From: Cytophagales bacterium | Lineage (GTDB): Bacteria > Bacteroidota > Bacteroidia > Cytophagales > Cyclobacteriaceae | Assembly (NCBI GenBank): GCA_022360015.1 | Contig: JAKSDQ010000060.1 | Coordinates: forward strand, 13,922-77,921 | Direction: 5' to 3' | Length of the DNA: 64,000 nt | Shown: positions 7,698-14,313 of the stretch, one piece after another | How positions within the stretch are numbered: the stretch's first letter is position 1 | Layout: every line of letters begins with the position of its first letter | Position numbers and translations under genes: made by a program | Notes under the pieces: model-generated | What the model was told of the DNA's origin: nothing | Seen by the model: the letters and a program-made list of their open reading frames with translations, nothing else | The model's database searches: none

Positions 7698-8486
7698 ATG
7701 GGCACCTCCGTTAATTCAATCATGGCAATAACTATCTATCCAAAAAAAGAACAGGCCAGCGGCCAGTTTGCAGCAGGAGCCATCAAAGAAAACAAGCCAA
7801 TCGGTTTTCCGCACGAGGGAGGCGAGTTAAAGCCCTTTTCTTCCTTGTTTTACTGGGCCCATGCCTGGTCCGATCAAGGTGGGTTAATCGGGGAACATCC
7901 ACATCAGGGTTTTGAAATCATGTCTTTTGTATTAAAAGGTGAAATTGAACACTATGACTCGCAGTTACAAAGTTGGAAAAGGCTCCGGGCTGGTGACATG
8001 CAGATTATCAGGTCAGGAAAGGGCATATCCCATGCCGAGAGATTTTTGCCTGGTGCGCACATCTTCCAGATTTGGGTTGACCCGGACTTGAGAAAAACCC
8101 TGAACAATCCCGCTACCTACAGCGATTACAGGGCAGACAGCTTTCCGGAGTCAAAGGAATCCGGTTGTGTAGTCAGAACTTTAAAAGGGCCTGGTTCACC
8201 TTTAACGATGAATGCCAATATTGAAAGTATCAGAGAGCTCCGGTTTTCCGAGGGACACCACAGAATAGAAATAAACAACAAAAACATGCTGGGAATATAT
8301 GTGACCGAAGGATTCCTCTCGTTGAATGAAGAGGCCGTGGGGCAGGATGATTTTGTATTGATCAAGGAAGAAAAAGAGATTTCTGTAAGCAATGAATCGG
8401 TTGCCGGACTGTTTATTATAGAAGTTCCTGATAATCCGGGGTATGAAACCTATGCCAATATGCAGGGTATTTCAGCTAAAATCTGA
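7698..8486 (+). CDS. Pirin-family cupin
   Basis: HPHQGFE...HYDS and GKGISHAE...QIWV pirin motifs; the true start may be the downstream Met (MAITIYP). Confidence 0.85.
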   Translation: MGTSVNSIMAITIYPKKEQASGQFAAGAIKENKPIGFPHEGGELKPFSSLFYWAHAWSDQGGLIGEHPHQGFEIMSFVLKGEIEHYDSQLQSWKRLRAGDMQIIRSGKGISHAERFLPGAHIFQIWVDPDLRKTLNNPATYSDYRADSFPESKESGCVVRTLKGPGSPLTMNANIESIRELRFSEGHHRIEINNKNMLGIYVTEGFLSLNEEAVGQDDFVLIKEEKEISVSNESVAGLFIIEVPDNPGYETYANMQGISAKI

Positions 8487-8526
8487 TTTTTTTTAAATAA
8501 ACTGAACTTAAGTAATTTGAATTCCG

Positions 8527-8558
8527 TTTGGAAACATAACAATTACCTTTTATATTTG
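8527..8558 (+). promoter_or_regulatory. sigma-ABfr promoter of the sulfur-assimilation operon
   Basis: TTTG (8527-8530), 20-bp spacer, TATATTTG (8551-8558); 30 bp upstream of the riboswitch. Confidence 0.85.
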
Positions 8559-8587
8559 GAACTTCAAGTCAATTATAAGGTAATTGA

Positions 8588-8700
8588 TTTATAAAGAAGC
8601 GCGGAGAGACAGGCTCTGTGAAGCGCTAGCAACCATATCAAAAAGATACACATTGATAGAAGGTGCTAATTCCTGATCCCGAAAGAAGGGAGAATATAAA
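8588..8700 (+). ncRNA. SAM-I (S-box) riboswitch aptamer
   Basis: P1 TTTATA/TATAAA; conserved AAGA-GCGCGGAGAGACAGGCTCTGTGAAGCGC P2, AGCAACC...AAGGTGCTAATTCC P3/J3-4, and P4 TCCC/GGGA. It lies upstream of Met/sulfur genes. Confidence 0.92.
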
Positions 8701-8711
8701 TTAATGAAACA

Positions 8712-8825
8712 ATGAAAAATAACACAAATCTTTTAACAGCCAAAAAAGCCTCACTTTTGAGCCCCTCCATTATTCATAATGAGAATGATACTTTAATGTT
8801 TGGGTGTTGTTGCTGTTGTTGCTAA
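8712..8825 (+). CDS. Putative hexa-cysteine leader peptide (37 aa, MKNNTNLLTAKKASLLSPSIIHNENDTLMFGCCCCCC)
   Basis: Manual translation: ATG 8712, TGT TGT TGC TGT TGT TGC at 8805-8822, TAA 8823-8825. Too short for the ORF track. Confidence 0.75.
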   Translation: MKNNTNLLTAKKASLLSPSIIHNENDTLMFGCCCCCC

Positions 8826-8965
8826 TCAATACATTTTATCTTTCATGAAGGATAATCTGGCCTGAGACAAACTTGTCTCAGCGCAATCAAATTACATCAA
8901 ATCAATAATTTTCAGAAGAAACAGGCGAAGGAGTTAAATCCTGAACCGCTAAAACAAAGAGAAAA

Positions 8966-9313
8966 ATGGCATTAATGATTACTGACGAATGTATCAACTG
9001 TGGAGCTTGTGAGCCGGAATGCCCAAATACGGCCATTTACGAAGGAGGAATAAATTGGAAATGGGGGGAAGGCAATGGATTGACAGAAGTTACCGATGCC
9101 CATGGAAATGTAATTGATGCACAAGAAGATCAGGAACCAATTTCGGAAGACTTTTATTTTATTGTCAGCGGCAAATGCACCGAGTGTGTGGGGTTTCATG
9201 AGGAACCACAATGTGCCGCGGTATGTCCGGTTGATTGCTGTGTTGAAGATCCGGAACATGTAGAAAGTGAAGAAATGCTATTGACTAAAAAAGAAGGTTT
9301 ACATTTAGTTTAA
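8966..9313 (+). CDS. 2[4Fe-4S] ferredoxin (YfhL/Alvin-like, with insertion)
   Basis: [12 protein letters not shown] and [18 protein letters not shown] cluster motifs. Confidence 0.93.
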
Positions 9314-9341
9314 AAGGATAGATTGCGACAGCGCACTAAAT

Positions 9342-10520
9342 ATGAGTGAATTTAAACACATAGAAACGAAGGCCATCAGGACACAAAATGGCAAGGCATC
9401 ATACAGGGAGCATTGTGCGCCGATTTACATGACTTCAAGCTTTACTTTCGAAGATGCTGAGCAGGCCAGAGCACTGTTTGCAGACGAAATCGAAGGTAAC
9501 ATTTATACAAGGTTTTCAAACCCCAATAATTCAGAATTTGTAGAAAAGCTTTGCTTGTTGGAGGAAACCGAAGATGGTATCGCGACTGCCTCAGGCATGG
9601 CAGCTATGTTTTCCAGTATGGCTGCGCTGCTTAATTCCGGAGATCATGTGCTGGCTTCCCGTTCGGTGTTTGGATCCACACATCAGATCTTTACCCAAAT
9701 TTTTCCGAAGTGGGGCATTGAACACACCTACGCAAATATCAACGACCCGTCAGATTGGGAGGGAAAGATCAGAAAAAATACAAAAATGATTTTCGCTGAA
9801 ACACCTTCCAACCCGGGTTTGGATCTGATAGATATGGAATGGCTGGGAGGACTTGCGGAAAAGCATGGACTTGTCTTGAACATTGACAATTGTTTCGCCA
9901 CGCCCATACTGCAACAACCGTCAAAATATGGCGCGCAAATTGTGACTCACTCTGCCACCAAGTTTATGGATGGTCAAGGCAGAACCATTGGCGGGGCAAT
10001 TCTTGGAAAACGTGATTTGATTGACAAAATAAGGTTTTTTACAAGGCATACCGGACCTGCCCTGTCACCTTTTAATGGTTGGATACTTTCGAAAAGCCTG
10101 GAAACCCTGCCCTTGCGCATGGAAAGACACTGTGAAAATGCCATGAAAATTGCTGAATACCTTGAAGGACACGAGGAACTTGAGTCAGTTAAGTATCCAT
10201 TCCTAAAGTCACACCCGCAGTACGATTTAGCCAAAAAACAGATGAGATATGGCGGGGGGCTAATCACATTTGTGGTTAATGGTGGTTTGGAAAGGGGCCA
10301 AAGGTTCTTGAATAGTCTGGAAATGTTGTCGTTTACAGCCAATCTCGGCGACGCCAGAACCATCGCCACACATCCGGCCTCAACGACACATTCAAAACTT
10401 TCGGAAGAAGACCGGAAAGTTGTGGGTATATCTCCGGGCTTGATCCGTATTTCTGTGGGTTTGGAAAATGTCAATGATATATTGGAAGACATCGTAAACG
10501 CATTAAATGCCTCTAAATAG
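9342..10520 (+). CDS. metZ: O-succinylhomoserine sulfhydrylase (Cys/Met PLP enzyme)
   Basis: YTRFSNP, ASGMAA, HSATKFMDGQGR (PLP lysine), HPASTTH. MetZ-like within the trans-sulfuration family; substrate is inferred. Confidence 0.8.
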   Translation: MSEFKHIETKAIRTQNGKASYREHCAPIYMTSSFTFEDAEQARALFADEIEGNIYTRFSNPNNSEFVEKLCLLEETEDGIATASGMAAMFSSMAALLNSGDHVLASRSVFGSTHQIFTQIFPKWGIEHTYANINDPSDWEGKIRKNTKMIFAETPSNPGLDLIDMEWLGGLAEKHGLVLNIDNCFATPILQQPSKYGAQIVTHSATKFMDGQGRTIGGAILGKRDLIDKIRFFTRHTGPALSPFNGWILSKSLETLPLRMERHCENAMKIAEYLEGHEELESVKYPFLKSHPQYDLAKKQMRYGGGLITFVVNGGLERGQRFLNSLEMLSFTANLGDARTIATHPASTTHSKLSEEDRKVVGISPGLIRISVGLENVNDILEDIVNALNASK

Positions 10521-10524
10521 AACT

Positions 10525-10629
10525 ATGAGAATAAAAATATACTATATCGCTCCCCTTTGCTTGATTAACCTGTGTATGATGGCTTGTTTTTGTTGTTGTC
10601 GAAACTGTATCAGCAGGGAGCATCTGTAA
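10525..10629 (+). CDS. Putative Cys-rich attenuator leader peptide (34 aa, MRIKIYYIAPLCLINLCMMACFCCCRNCISREHL)
   Basis: ATG 4 nt after the metZ stop; 7 Cys codons including TGT TTT TGT TGT TGT; TAA 10627-10629, upstream of a terminator. Confidence 0.8.
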   Translation: MRIKIYYIAPLCLINLCMMACFCCCRNCISREHL

Positions 10630-10657
10630 TTTTATGCAAGTTTAGTATAAGTTTTAG

Positions 10658-10689
10658 AGCCTTCCTGCTGACACGGGAAGGCTTTTTTT
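10658..10689 (+). terminator. Attenuator terminator before the sulfite reductase
   Basis: AGCCTTCCTG / CGGGAAGGCT 10-bp stem, 6-nt loop, T7 tract (10683-10689). Its 5' arm can alternatively pair with 10611-10620. Confidence 0.9.
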
Positions 10690-10725
10690 GTGAGTTGTAA
10701 TCAAAGTATTAAACAATCTATAAAA

Positions 10726-12885
10726 ATGACACCAGAATTAAATAACAAAATTTCAACCGAAGCGAAAGAAGATATTCGCGAGTTGGCAGAGAAAATCAGT
10801 CGTTTTCGTGATGGCAAGATAGACGAAGAGAAGTTTAAAGCGTACCGGCTTACAAGGGGCGTGTATGGACAAAGACAATTAGGTGTGCAGATGTTTCGCA
10901 CCAAAATACCTTACGGCCGGCTTACTGCCGATCAATTGACACGGATAGCCGATATCTCGGAGAAATATACGAATGGTAACCTCCATACTACCACCAGGCA
11001 AAATATTCAATTGCATTATGTAAAGTTGGACGACAGTCCTGCCATTTGGACAGAATTAGAAGAGGTAGGGGTAACAGCCCGTGAAGCATGTGGTAATACT
11101 GTACGTAATGTAACCGGTTCTGCGCTGGCAGGAATCGATCCCAATGAACCTTTTGATATAACCCCCTATGCTGAATCCGTTTTCAGATATTTTCTTAGAA
11201 ATCCAATATGCCAGGATATGGGAAGAAAGGTAAAGATTGCTTTCTCTTCCAGTGACAAAGACTCGGCGTTCACTTATTTTCATGATTTTGGATTTATTCC
11301 GGTTGTGAAAATTGAGGATGGTAAGGAAATCAGAGGCTTTAAAACTGTGGTAGGTGGCGGCCTGGGTGCACAGTCTTTTGTGGCCAGGACTGCCCACGAG
11401 TTTTTACCTGAAAACCAGATTATCCCTTTCACCGAGGCAGCGCTCAGGGTTTTTGACCGTTATGGGGAACGTGAAAAAAGGTTCAAAGCAAGACTGAAAT
11501 TCTTAATAGATGAAAAAAGAGGATTGGGATTGGAAAAATTCCTTGAATTAGTGGAAAAAGAACGTAAGGCCATCCCCCACCAATCAATTGAAATTGACAG
11601 GACGCTGGTACCTGAGTTGGTGCTACCGGAAAAACAGGATTATTCTGATGTGACTATTGAGGAGGAAGAAAAATATCGGGATTGGCTAAAATCAAATGTA
11701 TTTGAGCAAAAACACAAAGGCTTTCATGGTATCCGGATCAAGTTAACAAACGGCAACATCGATGCGGAAAGAGCCAGAAAATTATCAGGTATCGTCAGAA
11801 AACATGCCGCCGATGACCTGAGGATCACAGTTAATCAGGGCCTGTTATTGAAATATATACCAACCAGCGCATTACCTCAGGTATTTAATGAATTAAACGC
11901 CCTGGGCCTGGCGGAATTTGGTTTTGGCACCATTGCTGACATCACAGCCTGCCCCGGAACAGATACCTGTAACCTTGGTGTAAGTAACAGCACCGGCGTT
12001 GCAGAAGCCCTGGAAAAAATCATCAGGGAAGAATACAAGGATTTAATCTTTGATGCAGACATTCATATTAAAATCAGCGGATGCATGAATTCATGCGGAC
12101 AACACATGGCAGCCAACATTGGTTTTCATGGAAGTTCAATTAAAAACGGACAACTGGTTGTACCGGCTTTGGTGGTATTACTTGGGGGTGGGGTCGACCC
12201 TGAAGGAAATGGGTTTGTCGCCGACAAAGTGGCCAAGCTACCATCAAAAAAGGCACCACAGGCGTTGAGAATTATTCTGGATGATTATAAGGAAAATGCG
12301 CTTCCGGGAGAGTACTTCAACAGTTACTATAAAAGATATGGTAAAATATATTTTTATGATCTGATAAAACACCTCATTGATCCGACTCAGCTAACGGAAT
12401 CGGATTATATCGACTGGGGGGGAACTGATAATTTTGTGCCAGCAGTTGGTGTGGGTGAATGTGCCGGTGTCAGCTATGACGTTGTCGGAACGATCATCGA
12501 GGATGCCACTGAAAAACTGGCGAATGGTGAAAAAGATCTGGCTGCCGATGAGTATGACAGGACGATTTATAATGCTTACAATACGTTTGTAATCGGTGCA
12601 AAAGCATTACTGTTAAGTGAAGATATCAGATGTAATACACATATTGGTATTATCAGGGATTTTGACAAACATTTTGTTGAAGCCGGCAAATTAACGCTTA
12701 ACGAAAACTTCGAAACCCTGGTCTTGCAAATCAATCAAAATACACCAAATGCAGATTTTGCAAAGCGATATCTGAAGCTGGCCCATGAATTTTTGCAGCA
12801 GGTTAAAACATACCGTGCCAATCAAATTGCCGGTGATGTCACACAGAAAGAAAAGCTGGTGGTAGATAATTTTTATAAAGCATAA
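10726..12885 (+). CDS. Ferredoxin-dependent sulfite (nitrite/sulfite) reductase with C-terminal HEPN-like extension
   Basis: RLTRGVYGQRQ, TTRQNIQLH, CPGTDTCNLG and KISGCMNSCGQH siroheme/4Fe-4S motifs. Start moved from GTG 10690 (on the terminator U-tract) to ATG 10726. Confidence 0.9.
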   Translation: MTPELNNKISTEAKEDIRELAEKISRFRDGKIDEEKFKAYRLTRGVYGQRQLGVQMFRTKIPYGRLTADQLTRIADISEKYTNGNLHTTTRQNIQLHYVKLDDSPAIWTELEEVGVTAREACGNTVRNVTGSALAGIDPNEPFDITPYAESVFRYFLRNPICQDMGRKVKIAFSSSDKDSAFTYFHDFGFIPVVKIEDGKEIRGFKTVVGGGLGAQSFVARTAHEFLPENQIIPFTEAALRVFDRYGEREKRFKARLKFLIDEKRGLGLEKFLELVEKERKAIPHQSIEIDRTLVPELVLPEKQDYSDVTIEEEEKYRDWLKSNVFEQKHKGFHGIRIKLTNGNIDAERARKLSGIVRKHAADDLRITVNQGLLLKYIPTSALPQVFNELNALGLAEFGFGTIADITACPGTDTCNLGVSNSTGVAEALEKIIREEYKDLIFDADIHIKISGCMNSCGQHMAANIGFHGSSIKNGQLVVPALVVLLGGGVDPEGNGFVADKVAKLPSKKAPQALRIILDDYKENALPGEYFNSYYKRYGKIYFYDLIKHLIDPTQLTESDYIDWGGTDNFVPAVGVGECAGVSYDVVGTIIEDATEKLANGEKDLAADEYDRTIYNAYNTFVIGAKALLLSEDIRCNTHIGIIRDFDKHFVEAGKLTLNENFETLVLQINQNTPNADFAKRYLKLAHEFLQQVKTYRANQIAGDVTQKEKLVVDNFYKA

Positions 12886-12887
12886 TC

Positions 12888-13655
12888 ATGAACGGCAAAT
12901 TAACATTGGTAGGTGCCGGTCCGGGAGACCCGGACCTGATTAGCATAAAAGGTATGAAGGCCATCAAAAAGGCTGATGTCATTTTATATGATGCACTGGC
13001 ACATCCGGACTTACTGGAGTATGCCCGGCCCGGCACCGAAAAAATTTATGTAGGAAAAAGGGCCGGATACCACTCCTACAAGCAGGAAGAAATAAATCAA
13101 CTGATTGTGGATCGTGCCCTGAGAGGAAATCATGTGGTAAGGCTAAAAGGTGGAGATCCTTTTGTATTTGCCCACGGAAAAGAAGAACTGGAATATGCAG
13201 AGACATTTTCTATTGAAACAGAGGCTATTCTTGGCATATCCAGTGTTAACCTGCCCGGCTTATATGGCATACCATTAACCAGAAGAGGCGTCAACGAGAG
13301 TTTCTGGGTAATAACGGCCACAACCAAAGACGGAACACTTTCCAAAGATGTTTTTCAGGCTGCCCGGTCAACCGCCACGGTAGTACTGCTCATGGGCCTG
13401 AAGAAGCTGGACCAAATTACCGCCATCTATAAAAAGTCAGGAAGGGGTAATCTTCCGGCAGCATTGATCTCAAAAGGATCACTGGAGGACGGGAACATTA
13501 TTTTTGGCACCGCAGCCACGCTTTTGTCAAAACAACAGGAACACCGGCTGCCAGGTCCTGCGATGATTGTAATCGGGGAAGCGGTAGGCACTCATGAATA
13601 TTTCTATGAAAAAATAAAAAACGTGGAGCGATTCAATAACCATCCAAAATTTTAA
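12888..13655 (+). CDS. cobA: Uroporphyrinogen-III C-methyltransferase (siroheme synthesis; CysG methyltransferase domain)
   Basis: LVGAGPGDPDLIS, YVGKRAG, VVRLKGGDPFVF. Confidence 0.93.
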   Translation: MNGKLTLVGAGPGDPDLISIKGMKAIKKADVILYDALAHPDLLEYARPGTEKIYVGKRAGYHSYKQEEINQLIVDRALRGNHVVRLKGGDPFVFAHGKEELEYAETFSIETEAILGISSVNLPGLYGIPLTRRGVNESFWVITATTKDGTLSKDVFQAARSTATVVLLMGLKKLDQITAIYKKSGRGNLPAALISKGSLEDGNIIFGTAATLLSKQQEHRLPGPAMIVIGEAVGTHEYFYEKIKNVERFNNHPKF

Positions 13656-13659
13656 CGCT

Positions 13660-14313
13660 ATGGAAAGGCTGTTTGACAACAACCATTATACATCGCTAAC
13701 ACCCCGGGAAAGGCTGGAAAAACTATTCAGTGAACATGATGAAGCCAAAATTCTTGTGACCTCTTCATTCGGAAGCACATCGGTTGTGTTATTGCACATG
13801 TTAAGCCAGGTGAAGCCGGGGCATCCTATTCACTTCGTTAACACTGGTTTTCTTTTTCAGGAAACCCTTGATTACAAAAAACAATTGATTGAAAAACTAG
13901 GGCTTAAGGTCATCAATGTCAAAGCCAGGGAAAACCGTCACAGATTCACCAGGGAAAACCAAAGCTGGCGGTTCAATCACGATTTATGTTGTTTTATCAA
14001 CAAAGTGGAGCCGGTTAACGAACTGAGGGCCTCCTATGATGTTTGGATTTCAGGGCTACTCGCGTTCCAAAATGCGAACCGGAGCAAAACCCGCATCTTT
14101 GAACCTAAAAAGGATATCGTTAAATTCCATCCTATCATAGACATGACCGCCGCAGAGGTGAGTTTATATATGACGATTTACGAACTCCCCAGCCACCCTC
14201 TTGTGGCCGAGGGATACGAATCCATCGGATGTACCCATTGCACCAGAAAAGGAAAAGGAAGAGAAGGCCGGTGGTTTGACAAAACAAAAACCGAATGCGG
14301 CCTCCATGCATAA
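13660..14313 (+). CDS. cysH: APS/PAPS reductase; the CC...CxxC pattern suggests the 4Fe-4S APS-reductase type
   Basis: TSSFG, FVNTG, DLCCFINKVEP, GYESIGCTHCT, REGRW and C-terminal ECGLH. Confidence 0.92.
   Translation: MERLFDNNHYTSLTPRERLEKLFSEHDEAKILVTSSFGSTSVVLLHMLSQVKPGHPIHFVNTGFLFQETLDYKKQLIEKLGLKVINVKARENRHRFTRENQSWRFNHDLCCFINKVEPVNELRASYDVWISGLLAFQNANRSKTRIFEPKKDIVKFHPIIDMTAAEVSLYMTIYELPSHPLVAEGYESIGCTHCTRKGKGREGRWFDKTKTECGLHA

Follow-up and report, generated by a model that had tools for sequence, protein, structure and literature searches.

A cysteine-ended leader open reading frame behind a SAM-I riboswitch: a candidate two-input leader of a sulfur-assimilation operon in Cytophagales

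Why should a short open reading frame (ORF) that ends in six consecutive cysteine (Cys) codons lie directly behind an S-adenosylmethionine (SAM) riboswitch, and could the two be parts of a single regulatory leader? The question is raised by a locus in a 64,000-nt stretch of DNA from a Cytophagales bacterium of the family Cyclobacteriaceae (NCBI GenBank assembly GCA_022360015.1, contig JAKSDQ010000060.1, positions 13,922 to 77,921 of the forward strand); this whole stretch is called the window below. In the window, a SAM-I aptamer, followed by the leader ORF, occupies the 5' leader of the genes for a ferredoxin, a sulfhydrylase, a sulfite reductase, an uroporphyrinogen-III C-methyltransferase (SUMT) and a PAPS reductase (Table 1). 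We consider it probable that this leader serves the operon, which is devoted to sulfur assimilation and homocysteine synthesis, as an mRNA device with two inputs, SAM and cysteine.

The aptamer, the leader ORF and their conservation

The aptamer matches the SAM-I model of Rfam (RF00162) over its full length, model positions 1-108, scoring 75.7 bits (gathering score 44.4; E = 5.6e-16). By the covariance model, the RNA is a full member of SAM-I, and it is predicted to bind SAM. Within the genus the aptamer sequence is nearly invariant, with compensatory changes in helix P4. The translation of the leader ORF is MKNNTNLLTAKKASLLSPSIIHNENDTLMFGCCCCCC, then stop, and the Cys codons, in the order TGT TGT TGC TGT TGT TGC, are directly followed by TAA. 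The initial annotation of the window had described an uncalled leader ORF with six terminal Cys codons behind a SAM-I riboswitch, and both the sequence and the RF00162 match agree with this description; the distance of 11 nt that it gave between the two has to be corrected to 9 nt (8703-8711) by the Rfam boundary. The leader ORF is indeed absent from the gene calls of public metagenome contigs that carry an identical downstream gene and in which the ferredoxin, sulfhydrylase and sulfite reductase genes are called.

The family to which the window belongs was surveyed with 150 SAM-I aptamers from 59 genomes, representing 58 genera. An ATG-initiated ORF was regarded as adjacent when its start lay within −12 to +45 of the aptamer end, Cys was scored in the last 12 residues, and 2883 ORFs from the same loci served as controls. 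Two consecutive Cys residues (CC) were found in the terminal region of 60 of the 150 aptamer-adjacent ORFs, versus 1.7% of the controls, and three (CCC) in 47 of the 150, versus 4 of the 2883 controls (0.14%). Thus, the conserved C-terminal poly-Cys behind SAM-I that the initial annotation had suggested looking for in related genomes is present there. In 42 of the 60 CC-bearing leader ORFs, the final residue is Cys. Both Cys codons are used in the family leaders (TGT 212 times, TGC 107 times), and the last ten residues consist of 47.5% Cys and 6.2% methionine (Met), compared with 2.3% and 2.0%, respectively, in the rest of the peptide. The leader ORFs range in length from 18 to 60 residues, and some metY leaders that lack CC end in alternating Met and Cys (...YMCM, ...MRCPMCR). 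Altogether, the coupling of a Cys-rich leader to a SAM aptamer occurs in at least 38 of the 59 genomes and is kept in frame, position and gene association.

In the 7.3-Mb genome from which the window stems, only two ORFs of up to 80 amino acids end in at least four Cys residues, and both lie directly behind SAM-I aptamers, that is, behind two of the three that the genome contains. The third aptamer (L003), which precedes a metH-like gene, has neither a Cys leader nor the upstream hairpin P0 described below. The second of the two Cys leaders (locus L002, G000:C244:52296-52554) stands before a metY-type gene and ends in ...HLSRCCCCYIIP; its aptamer has a P0 hairpin of its own. A chance origin of the Cys-ended ORF was also considered and is ruled out by this genome-wide scan together with the background rate among control ORFs.

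Whether the Cys codons are read as codons was assessed at the 48 loci that have a (TGY) run of at least three within 330 nt past the aptamer. The run is in frame with the aptamer-adjacent ATG in 46 of them, versus 2 of 48 and 0 of 48 for the two shifted frames, and an in-frame stop follows the run within four codons at 40 loci, versus 5 and 5 for the shifted frames. The initial annotation had made its proposal depend on a frame conserved in relatives, and such a frame is what these counts reveal. Interruptions of the Cys run stay in frame as well (CCCYCCCCC, CCCPCCC, CCMCCISC). Within the genus, the reading frame, the MKN..NLLT start and the MF-x-C6-7 end are conserved, while the part of the leader without Cys is about 45% identical by a by-eye count. 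Because frame, start and Cys end are kept while the remaining peptide diverges, the comparison argues for a translated, sequence-indifferent ORF, which is the signature of a sensory leader peptide and not of a functional protein or of a pure RNA motif.

The presence of the leader depends strongly on the next gene. Cys-ended leaders precede all eight ferredoxin-led sulfur operons (8/8), 30 of 42 metY-type sulfhydrylase genes and both sulfite reductase genes (2/2); they are also found before RimK-like ATP-grasp genes (3/3) and before some metB/Z-like genes (5/18). None was found before the metH-like genes (0/48), which differ in this respect from the pooled ferredoxin and metY loci (38/50) with a Fisher p of 6e-17. 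Since ferredoxin, metY and sulfite reductase loci bear the leader and metH loci never do, the Cys leader, as judged from its gene context, goes with steps in which reduced sulfur is used or acquired, which is what one would expect of a cysteine input. Further genes behind SAM-I and Cys leaders encode an FGE-sulfatase-domain protein, an NhaC-family transporter, an OsmC-like protein and TonB-dependent receptors; together with the RimK-like ATP-grasp genes (L179/L199/L183), these are the loci L230, L152, L140 and L132/L188. A homologue search based on the ferredoxin returned 80 housekeeping ferredoxin loci of other Bacteroidota, none of them with SAM-I or the leader.

At least three further families of the order also have Cys leaders behind SAM-I, and no Cys-ended adjacent ORF was found behind 20 aptamers from other families of the class. 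In those other families of the class, SAM-I is equipped with a classical terminator. Behind this terminator, one genus has a leader ORF of its own, rich in Met and Cys. The loci in question (L065, L066 and L070; family f20, genus g76) thus contain SAM-I, a normal terminator and then a Met/Cys-ended leader, for example ...FMHCRFFRMCMPVNI, an arrangement that is a true tandem rather than fused.

Several loci depart from these patterns. At L036-L062, from more distant Bacteroidota (families of the same phylum, for example f37), ORFs of the type MMYAFLLISYLS or MMVCMPF... start in or beside the 3' strand of the SAM-I helix P1; these short ORFs are Met-rich at their start, not poly-Cys, and may reflect chance or a different type of leader. 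Two successive poly-Cys tracts were observed ahead of sulfite reductase genes at L191 (genome G012) and at L176/L016 (G008), with a canonical terminator after the second tract at L191, which suggests that these loci are multi-tier variants of the design.

Start geometry of the leader ORF and the P0 hairpin

Across the family, the leader ATG lies most often at +8 or +9 from the aptamer end. An ATG at +9 places the AAA of the P1 3' strand (AUAUAAAUU) at −14 to −12 of the leader start. This is the configuration of the window, where an A at −3 and AAA as the second codon complete the start context. Among the 60 leader loci, A is found at −14, −13 and −12 in 40, 42 and 44 cases, respectively, and at −3 in 38. 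The P1 3' strand overlaps positions −18 to −10 of the leader initiation region and can be extended to −7; in a fold with P1 enforced, the helix reaches 8705, 7 nt from the leader ATG. In Flavobacterium johnsoniae, a bacterium that, in common with other Bacteroidia, initiates without Shine-Dalgarno pairing, an A-rich motif at −14 to −11 (with A-12 and A-13 being the most critical), A-3 and A-6 were found experimentally to promote initiation, and secondary structure in the initiation region was found to reduce it (PMC6847099). The positional match supports the view that the P1 3' strand provides the A-rich initiation element of the leader ORF. With its adenines at −14 to −12 inside this strand, the element would thus be hidden whenever P1 is closed.

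A mini-ORF directly upstream has a stop that overlaps the leader ATG. It is unusual because AUG is depleted around the start codons of Bacteroidia (PMC6847099). Relatives from the genus have ATG AAA ATA TGA at the same place, and a few other loci of the family have similar upstream AUGs.

On the other side of the aptamer, the 3' arm of the P0 hairpin takes up the aptamer bases 8586-8590. Since the P1 5' strand opens with exactly these five bases, P0 and P1 cannot form at the same time. The energies predicted without ligand are −33.5 kcal/mol with P0 enforced and −31.2 kcal/mol with P1 enforced; in these models, P0 and P1 are nearly isoenergetic, which is what a ligand-tipped switch would need. 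The hairpin was compared across the family with per-sequence folds, their shuffles and pair tables. Leader-bearing loci have a mean P0 energy of −6.8 kcal/mol, versus −2.7 kcal/mol for the shuffles (z = −2.4), whereas the metH-type loci have a z of −0.3. The base just 5' of the aptamer covaries with its partner (A-U 27, G-C 12, C-G 6), and roughly two thirds of the loci have the first three aptamer bases engaged in P0. RNAalifold returned no structure for a MAFFT alignment of the P0 region, in which variable loop lengths misalign the 5' arms. To our knowledge, an anti-P1 element upstream of SAM-I has not been described; our literature searches, which were not aimed at such an element specifically, did not bring one to light. 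The initial annotation had suggested that SAM binding could gate leader translation since the start is so close to P1. The AAA of the P1 3' strand at −14 to −12 and the covarying anti-P1 hairpin both speak for this suggestion, and from these two features we infer the gating itself.

The transcript is predicted to start at about 8562-8566, and the candidate promoter was matched to the Bacteroidota consensus, −33 TTTG / −7 TAnnTTTG. A sigma-70 scan of the leader region gave weak matches only. Further downstream, behind the sulfhydrylase gene, the operon contains a second Cys-rich ORF and a canonical terminator; 10525-10685 is a classical attenuator within the same operon, ahead of the sulfite reductase gene. 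The segment CAGCAGGGAG (10611-10620) can pair with the 5' arm of this terminator.

Table 1. Features of the leader and of the operon in the window (positions of the window)
Feature	Position	Strand	Details
Promoter candidate, Bacteroidota-type	8528-8558	+	TTTG 8528-8531, 19-nt spacer, TAtaTTTG 8551-8558; putative, read from the sequence
P0 hairpin (anti-P1)	8566-8590	+	8566-8576 with 8580-8590, 11 bp, loop AAG; in the minimum-free-energy fold
SAM-I riboswitch aptamer	8586-8702	+	RF00162; P1 = 8586-8593 with 8695-8702, extendable to 8583/8705
Mini-ORF	8705-8716	+	ATG AAA CAA TGA (three codons); stop overlaps leader ATG (AUGA)
Leader ORF	8712-8825	+	37 codons; six Cys codons 8805-8822; stop TAA 8823-8825
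Hairpin 1	8836-8855	+	UUAUCUUU / AAGGAUAA; AU-rich, no U-tract after it; kept in the genus, register slightly shifted
Hairpin 2	8862-8881	+	CUGAGACA aacu UGUCUCAG; 8 bp; one compensatory G-C to A-U change in the genus
Hairpin 3	8929-8942	+	AGGA guuaaa UCCU; about 24 nt before the ferredoxin start; compensatory A-U to C-G change in the genus
YfhL-family 4Fe-4S dicluster ferredoxin, first operon gene	8966-9313	+	NCBIfam NF033683, 101.9 bits versus cut-off 86
O-succinylhomoserine sulfhydrylase-like pyridoxal phosphate enzyme (MetZ/MetY family)	9342-10520	+	NF006003 and TIGR01325 just below cut-offs; Pfam PF01053
Cys-rich ORF	10525-10629	+	34 codons, ...MMACFCCCRNC...; ORF MRIKIYYIAPLCLINLCMMACFCCCRNCISREHL; begins 4 nt past the sulfhydrylase stop
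Canonical terminator and T-tract	10656-10685	+	downstream of the Cys-rich ORF 10525-10629
NirA/sulfite reductase family protein	10690-12885	+	
SUMT	12888-13655	+	
PAPS reductase	13660-14313	+	

From the leader to the operon

The terminator scan found no intrinsic terminator in 8300-9400, and 50 of the 57 untranslated regions (UTRs) that follow the leaders in the family also lack one (7/57 have one). Terminators are otherwise in use, both in the same operon, at 10656-10685, and behind the SAM-I aptamers of sister families. The lack of a terminator near the aptamer or the ORF, the geometry of the leader start and the P0 hairpin thus point to an action of SAM on leader translation.

The structures described here are thermodynamic predictions, and among them only P0 and the small hairpins are backed by comparison. 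The three hairpins between the leader and the ferredoxin gene persist in folds with and without a ribosome mask. Hairpin 2 is followed by a C/A-rich, G-poor stretch (8882-8916) without a U-tract and is not a terminator by the scan. The window folds contained no mutually exclusive antiterminator that overlaps the Cys codons, and k-mer counts found no conserved primary-sequence motif in the UTRs. A role of hairpin 1 in mimicking P1, or in pairing with the P1 3' strand as an antiterminator, was considered and rejected, since at most 5-7 AU pairs were counted by eye, without consistency in the genus. The leader stop is separated from the ferredoxin start by 140 nt, and the start region is A-rich and predicted to be open. 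UTR lengths are tightly distributed in the family (median 118 nt, interquartile range 95-135). The C/G ratio is 1.58 in the leader ORFs and 1.39 in their UTRs, compared with 0.91 in coding sequence and 1.15 in the metH spacers, and a rho gene is present. A side observation concerns the UTRs of L095 and L197, which belong to different genera and share CAGGUGACAGGCA in a GC-rich hairpin that follows a hairpin of the Cys run with an anti-Cys segment; this hairpin may be a UTR element conserved within a subgroup.

Because the Cys-rich leader is conserved in frame, position and gene association, cysteine sensing read by a ribosome, in combination with SAM sensing, is the best reading of the locus. 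The initial annotation had proposed a Cys-sensing ribosome-stall element in tandem with the SAM aptamer; a Cys-rich leader ORF in this setting is borne out by the conservation, from which we infer the stalling step. Without SAM, P0 would persist and P1 would stay open, so that the A/U-rich P1 3' strand would be free to act as the leader initiation element. Bound SAM would close P1 over the −14 to −11 element and block leader translation. With plentiful charged tRNA-Cys, a ribosome translating the leader would terminate and leave at once, and with scarce charged tRNA-Cys it would be parked at the end of the ORF. As the Cys codons abut the stop, stalled and terminating ribosomes would be at nearly the same place, so that the signal should be the presence or absence of a ribosome and not its position. 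Expression of the operon would then follow how long ribosomes occupy the 3' end of the leader: not at all when SAM is high, briefly when SAM is low and cysteine ample, and for long when SAM is low and cysteine scarce. Such occupancy may protect the leader RNA, in which C prevails over G, from termination by Rho, or it may block another occupancy-sensitive event; in some relatives, this event could be the folding of the Cys run into a hairpin with a GCAACA-like segment downstream.

Given the lack of an intrinsic terminator and of any predicted sequestration of the ferredoxin start, Rho or another occupancy-sensitive event would have to provide the output; our guess favours Rho-dependent premature termination that is relieved by ribosome occupancy. 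The scheme in its specific form, a class of riboswitch adapted to Bacteroidia that do without Shine-Dalgarno motifs, in which P1 masks the Bacteroidia A-rich element at −14 to −11 in competition with P0, and SAM-gated initiation is multiplied by Cys-dependent occupancy in a terminator-free leader read via Rho, is put forward tentatively and may well fail as a whole.

Several points weigh against it. Under a strict AND logic, the sulfhydrylase would be off at low SAM with ample cysteine, an outcome of no obvious benefit. P0 might alternatively serve to stabilise the 5' end. Masking of the Cys run leaves the accessibility of the ferredoxin start practically unchanged (0.64 to 0.66 in the window, 0.60 to 0.61 for the family mean), so that folding leaves the link from the leader to the operon unexplained. 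The complementarity of the Cys run to its own UTR is, in the window, no better than to non-cognate UTRs (−16.8 versus a mean of −17.8 kcal/mol). The excess of C over G is only moderately above that of the metH spacers and could reflect the composition of Bacteroidota UTRs in general. Moreover, a ribosome stalled far behind RNA polymerase could raise Rho termination.

Alternatively, two independent sensors could stand in series, the aptamer working through an unrecognised platform of its own (for example mRNA stability, or Rho acting on RNA near the aptamer) and the Cys attenuator being translated regardless of SAM. That the two modules are separable is seen in the tandem of genus g76, in which SAM-I has its own terminator ahead of the Met/Cys-rich leader, and in the stand-alone classical Cys attenuator of the same operon. 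Nevertheless, we regard two unconnected sensors as rather unlikely: at most loci the ATG lies at +8/+9 from P1, whose 3' strand supplies the adenines at −14 to −12; neither a terminator nor another platform is found between aptamer and ORF; and P0 accompanies the leader-type loci and is largely absent from the metH-type loci.

Pairing of the Cys run with sequences downstream offers another route to the operon. Family-wide, the run pairs with its own UTR, often with a GCAACA-like segment, and this complementarity is better for cognate than for non-cognate combinations (t = −4.5). In compact relatives, the Cys run is predicted to pair with the region of the main start (CAUGCUGUUGUUG with CAACAACAUG at L160; also at L219 and L153), and masking the run raises the accessibility of that start. 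These features would suit a translational attenuator of the mycobacterial kind, a mechanism established for Ms5788A, in which the Cys run hides the start of the first gene by pairing and a stalled ribosome frees it. Such an attenuator is, however, improbable in the window, where the run pairs with its own UTR no better than with non-cognate ones, masking hardly alters the accessibility of the start, and 140 nt of RNA separate the leader from the ferredoxin start, whose surroundings are A-rich and open.

It is very unlikely that the poly-Cys peptide is itself the product, for example a micro-protein binding thiols, metals or persulfides, or a cysteine sink, that is merely co-regulated by SAM. 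Cys-rich micro-peptides do exist in nature, and the start context of the leader is strong. Yet only the start and the terminal Cys/Met-rich stretch are conserved, the remainder diverging within the genus to the extent given above, the length varies more than threefold from the shortest to the longest leader, and the ORF is tied to the riboswitch and not to a particular partner gene.

The Cys run might also act as RNA. The initial annotation had pointed to a possible 7-bp cross-talk pairing of GTTGCTA (8818-8824) with TAGCAAC (8627-8633) in the aptamer. Both segments are present at these positions, and the match is generic, every SAM-I having GCAAC and every Cys run GUUGC. As the complementarity follows from the Cys codons and the invariant GCAAC of the aptamer, it is not evidence for cross-talk; in a permutation test, duplexes of Cys run and aptamer had −18.46 kcal/mol for cognate and −18.41 kcal/mol for non-cognate combinations (double-centred difference −0.05, t about −0.2). 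We therefore give hardly any credence to the idea that the (UGY)n tract is an RNA element unread by ribosomes, whether as a repeat that binds protein or RNA or as a strand that pairs with the aptamer: it could call on the GUUGC match at every locus, 7 bp long in the window, but the tract keeps to the frame of the ATG with the stop directly behind it, is interrupted in frame and enriched in Met, and has no cognate-specific complementarity with the aptamer.

Related systems and the meaning of the coupling

Each component of the proposed two-input leader is known: SAM-I, Cys leader peptides, upstream ORFs (uORFs) controlled by riboswitches, and a SAM-I riboswitch that integrates a tRNA signal. 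In full-text literature searches, no report was found in which a SAM riboswitch is combined with a Cys leader ORF. The locus resembles classical attenuators such as trpL and hisL in that codons for the amino acid of the pathway form a run in its leader ORF. However, classical attenuators need a pair of terminator and antiterminator, which is found neither in the window nor in 50 of the 57 relatives, and here the regulatory codons abut the stop. In the tna operon of E. coli, a ribosome held at the end of the leader tnaC, beside C-rich, G-poor RNA, decides on transcription in the absence of an intrinsic terminator. The likeness to tnaC lies in the presence of a ribosome at the end of the leader as the proposed signal and in the missing intrinsic terminator. 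The tnaC stall depends on the nascent peptide and free tryptophan at the stop codon, whereas codon starvation is proposed here, with Rho as the presumed effector.

Other leaders combine an aptamer with a short ORF. In the Mg2+ leader of Salmonella mgtA, the ORF mgtL with its proline codons adds an amino-acid signal to a riboswitch leader. In M. tuberculosis, the B12 riboswitches of ppe2 and metE control an upstream ORF (Kipkorir et al. 2024, PMC11260477). In all these cases, as predicted here, the aptamer adjoins a short ORF, and ligand and uORF translation jointly set expression. The ligands differ (B12 and Mg2+); ppe2 uses termination-reinitiation at overlapping codons, whereas the leader ORF of the window ends 140 nt before the first gene; and neither ppe2/metE nor mgtA has a Cys run, an upstream anti-P1 hairpin or the Bacteroidia A-rich initiation element. 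Compared with other members of SAM-I, the aptamer is ordinary in its full covariance match and its context of methionine and sulfur genes. The usual SAM-I platforms are a downstream terminator or sequestration of a Shine-Dalgarno motif, whereas the window has P0 upstream, and the regulated start would be that of the leader ORF. Dual sensing at the level of translation is known for SAM-I of Xanthomonas, which also binds uncharged initiator tRNA (PMC7270179).

The closest parallel to the Cys run is found in mycobacteria, where leaderless short ORFs (sORFs) with poly-Cys (Ms5788A, the 'Cys ribulon') sense cysteine (Canestrari et al. 2020, bioRxiv 10.1101/834739). Cys leaders have also been predicted in Actinobacteria (PMC1262725), and a cysS uORF is known from Rhodobacterales (PMC8632094). 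The mycobacterial sORFs and the present leader are alike in being short, unannotated ORFs with consecutive Cys codons (six here, at least two being needed) ahead of sulfur or cysteine genes, in the dwelling of ribosomes at the Cys tract as the sensor of charged tRNA-Cys, which is a supposition in our case, and in not requiring an intrinsic terminator. They differ in that the mycobacterial sORFs are leaderless, at the 5' end of the mRNA and without a riboswitch, whereas here the ATG lies about 150 nt past the predicted transcript start and behind SAM-I. Also, the duplex of the Cys tract with the next start that operates in mycobacteria is not predicted in the window, though it is predicted in some compact relatives, and the phylum is different, with initiation that does without Shine-Dalgarno motifs.

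Riboswitches and leader-peptide attenuators are usually seen as alternatives, and here they are apparently fused in one device. The fused device would read SAM together with the charging of tRNA for Cys, and partly for Met, at the branch point through which reduced sulfur passes into homocysteine and cysteine. For riboswitches of Bacteroidia, the finding further suggests a control of translation in which an A-rich upstream element is hidden and not a Shine-Dalgarno motif. The FGE-sulfatase-domain, RimK-like, NhaC-family, OsmC-like and TonB-dependent proteins encoded behind SAM-I and Cys leaders are candidates for unrecognised functions in sulfur or thiol metabolism. As the design is conserved in dozens of genera, it is accessible to experiments in cultured relatives, and a family of unannotated sensory micro-ORFs would be added to genome annotation.

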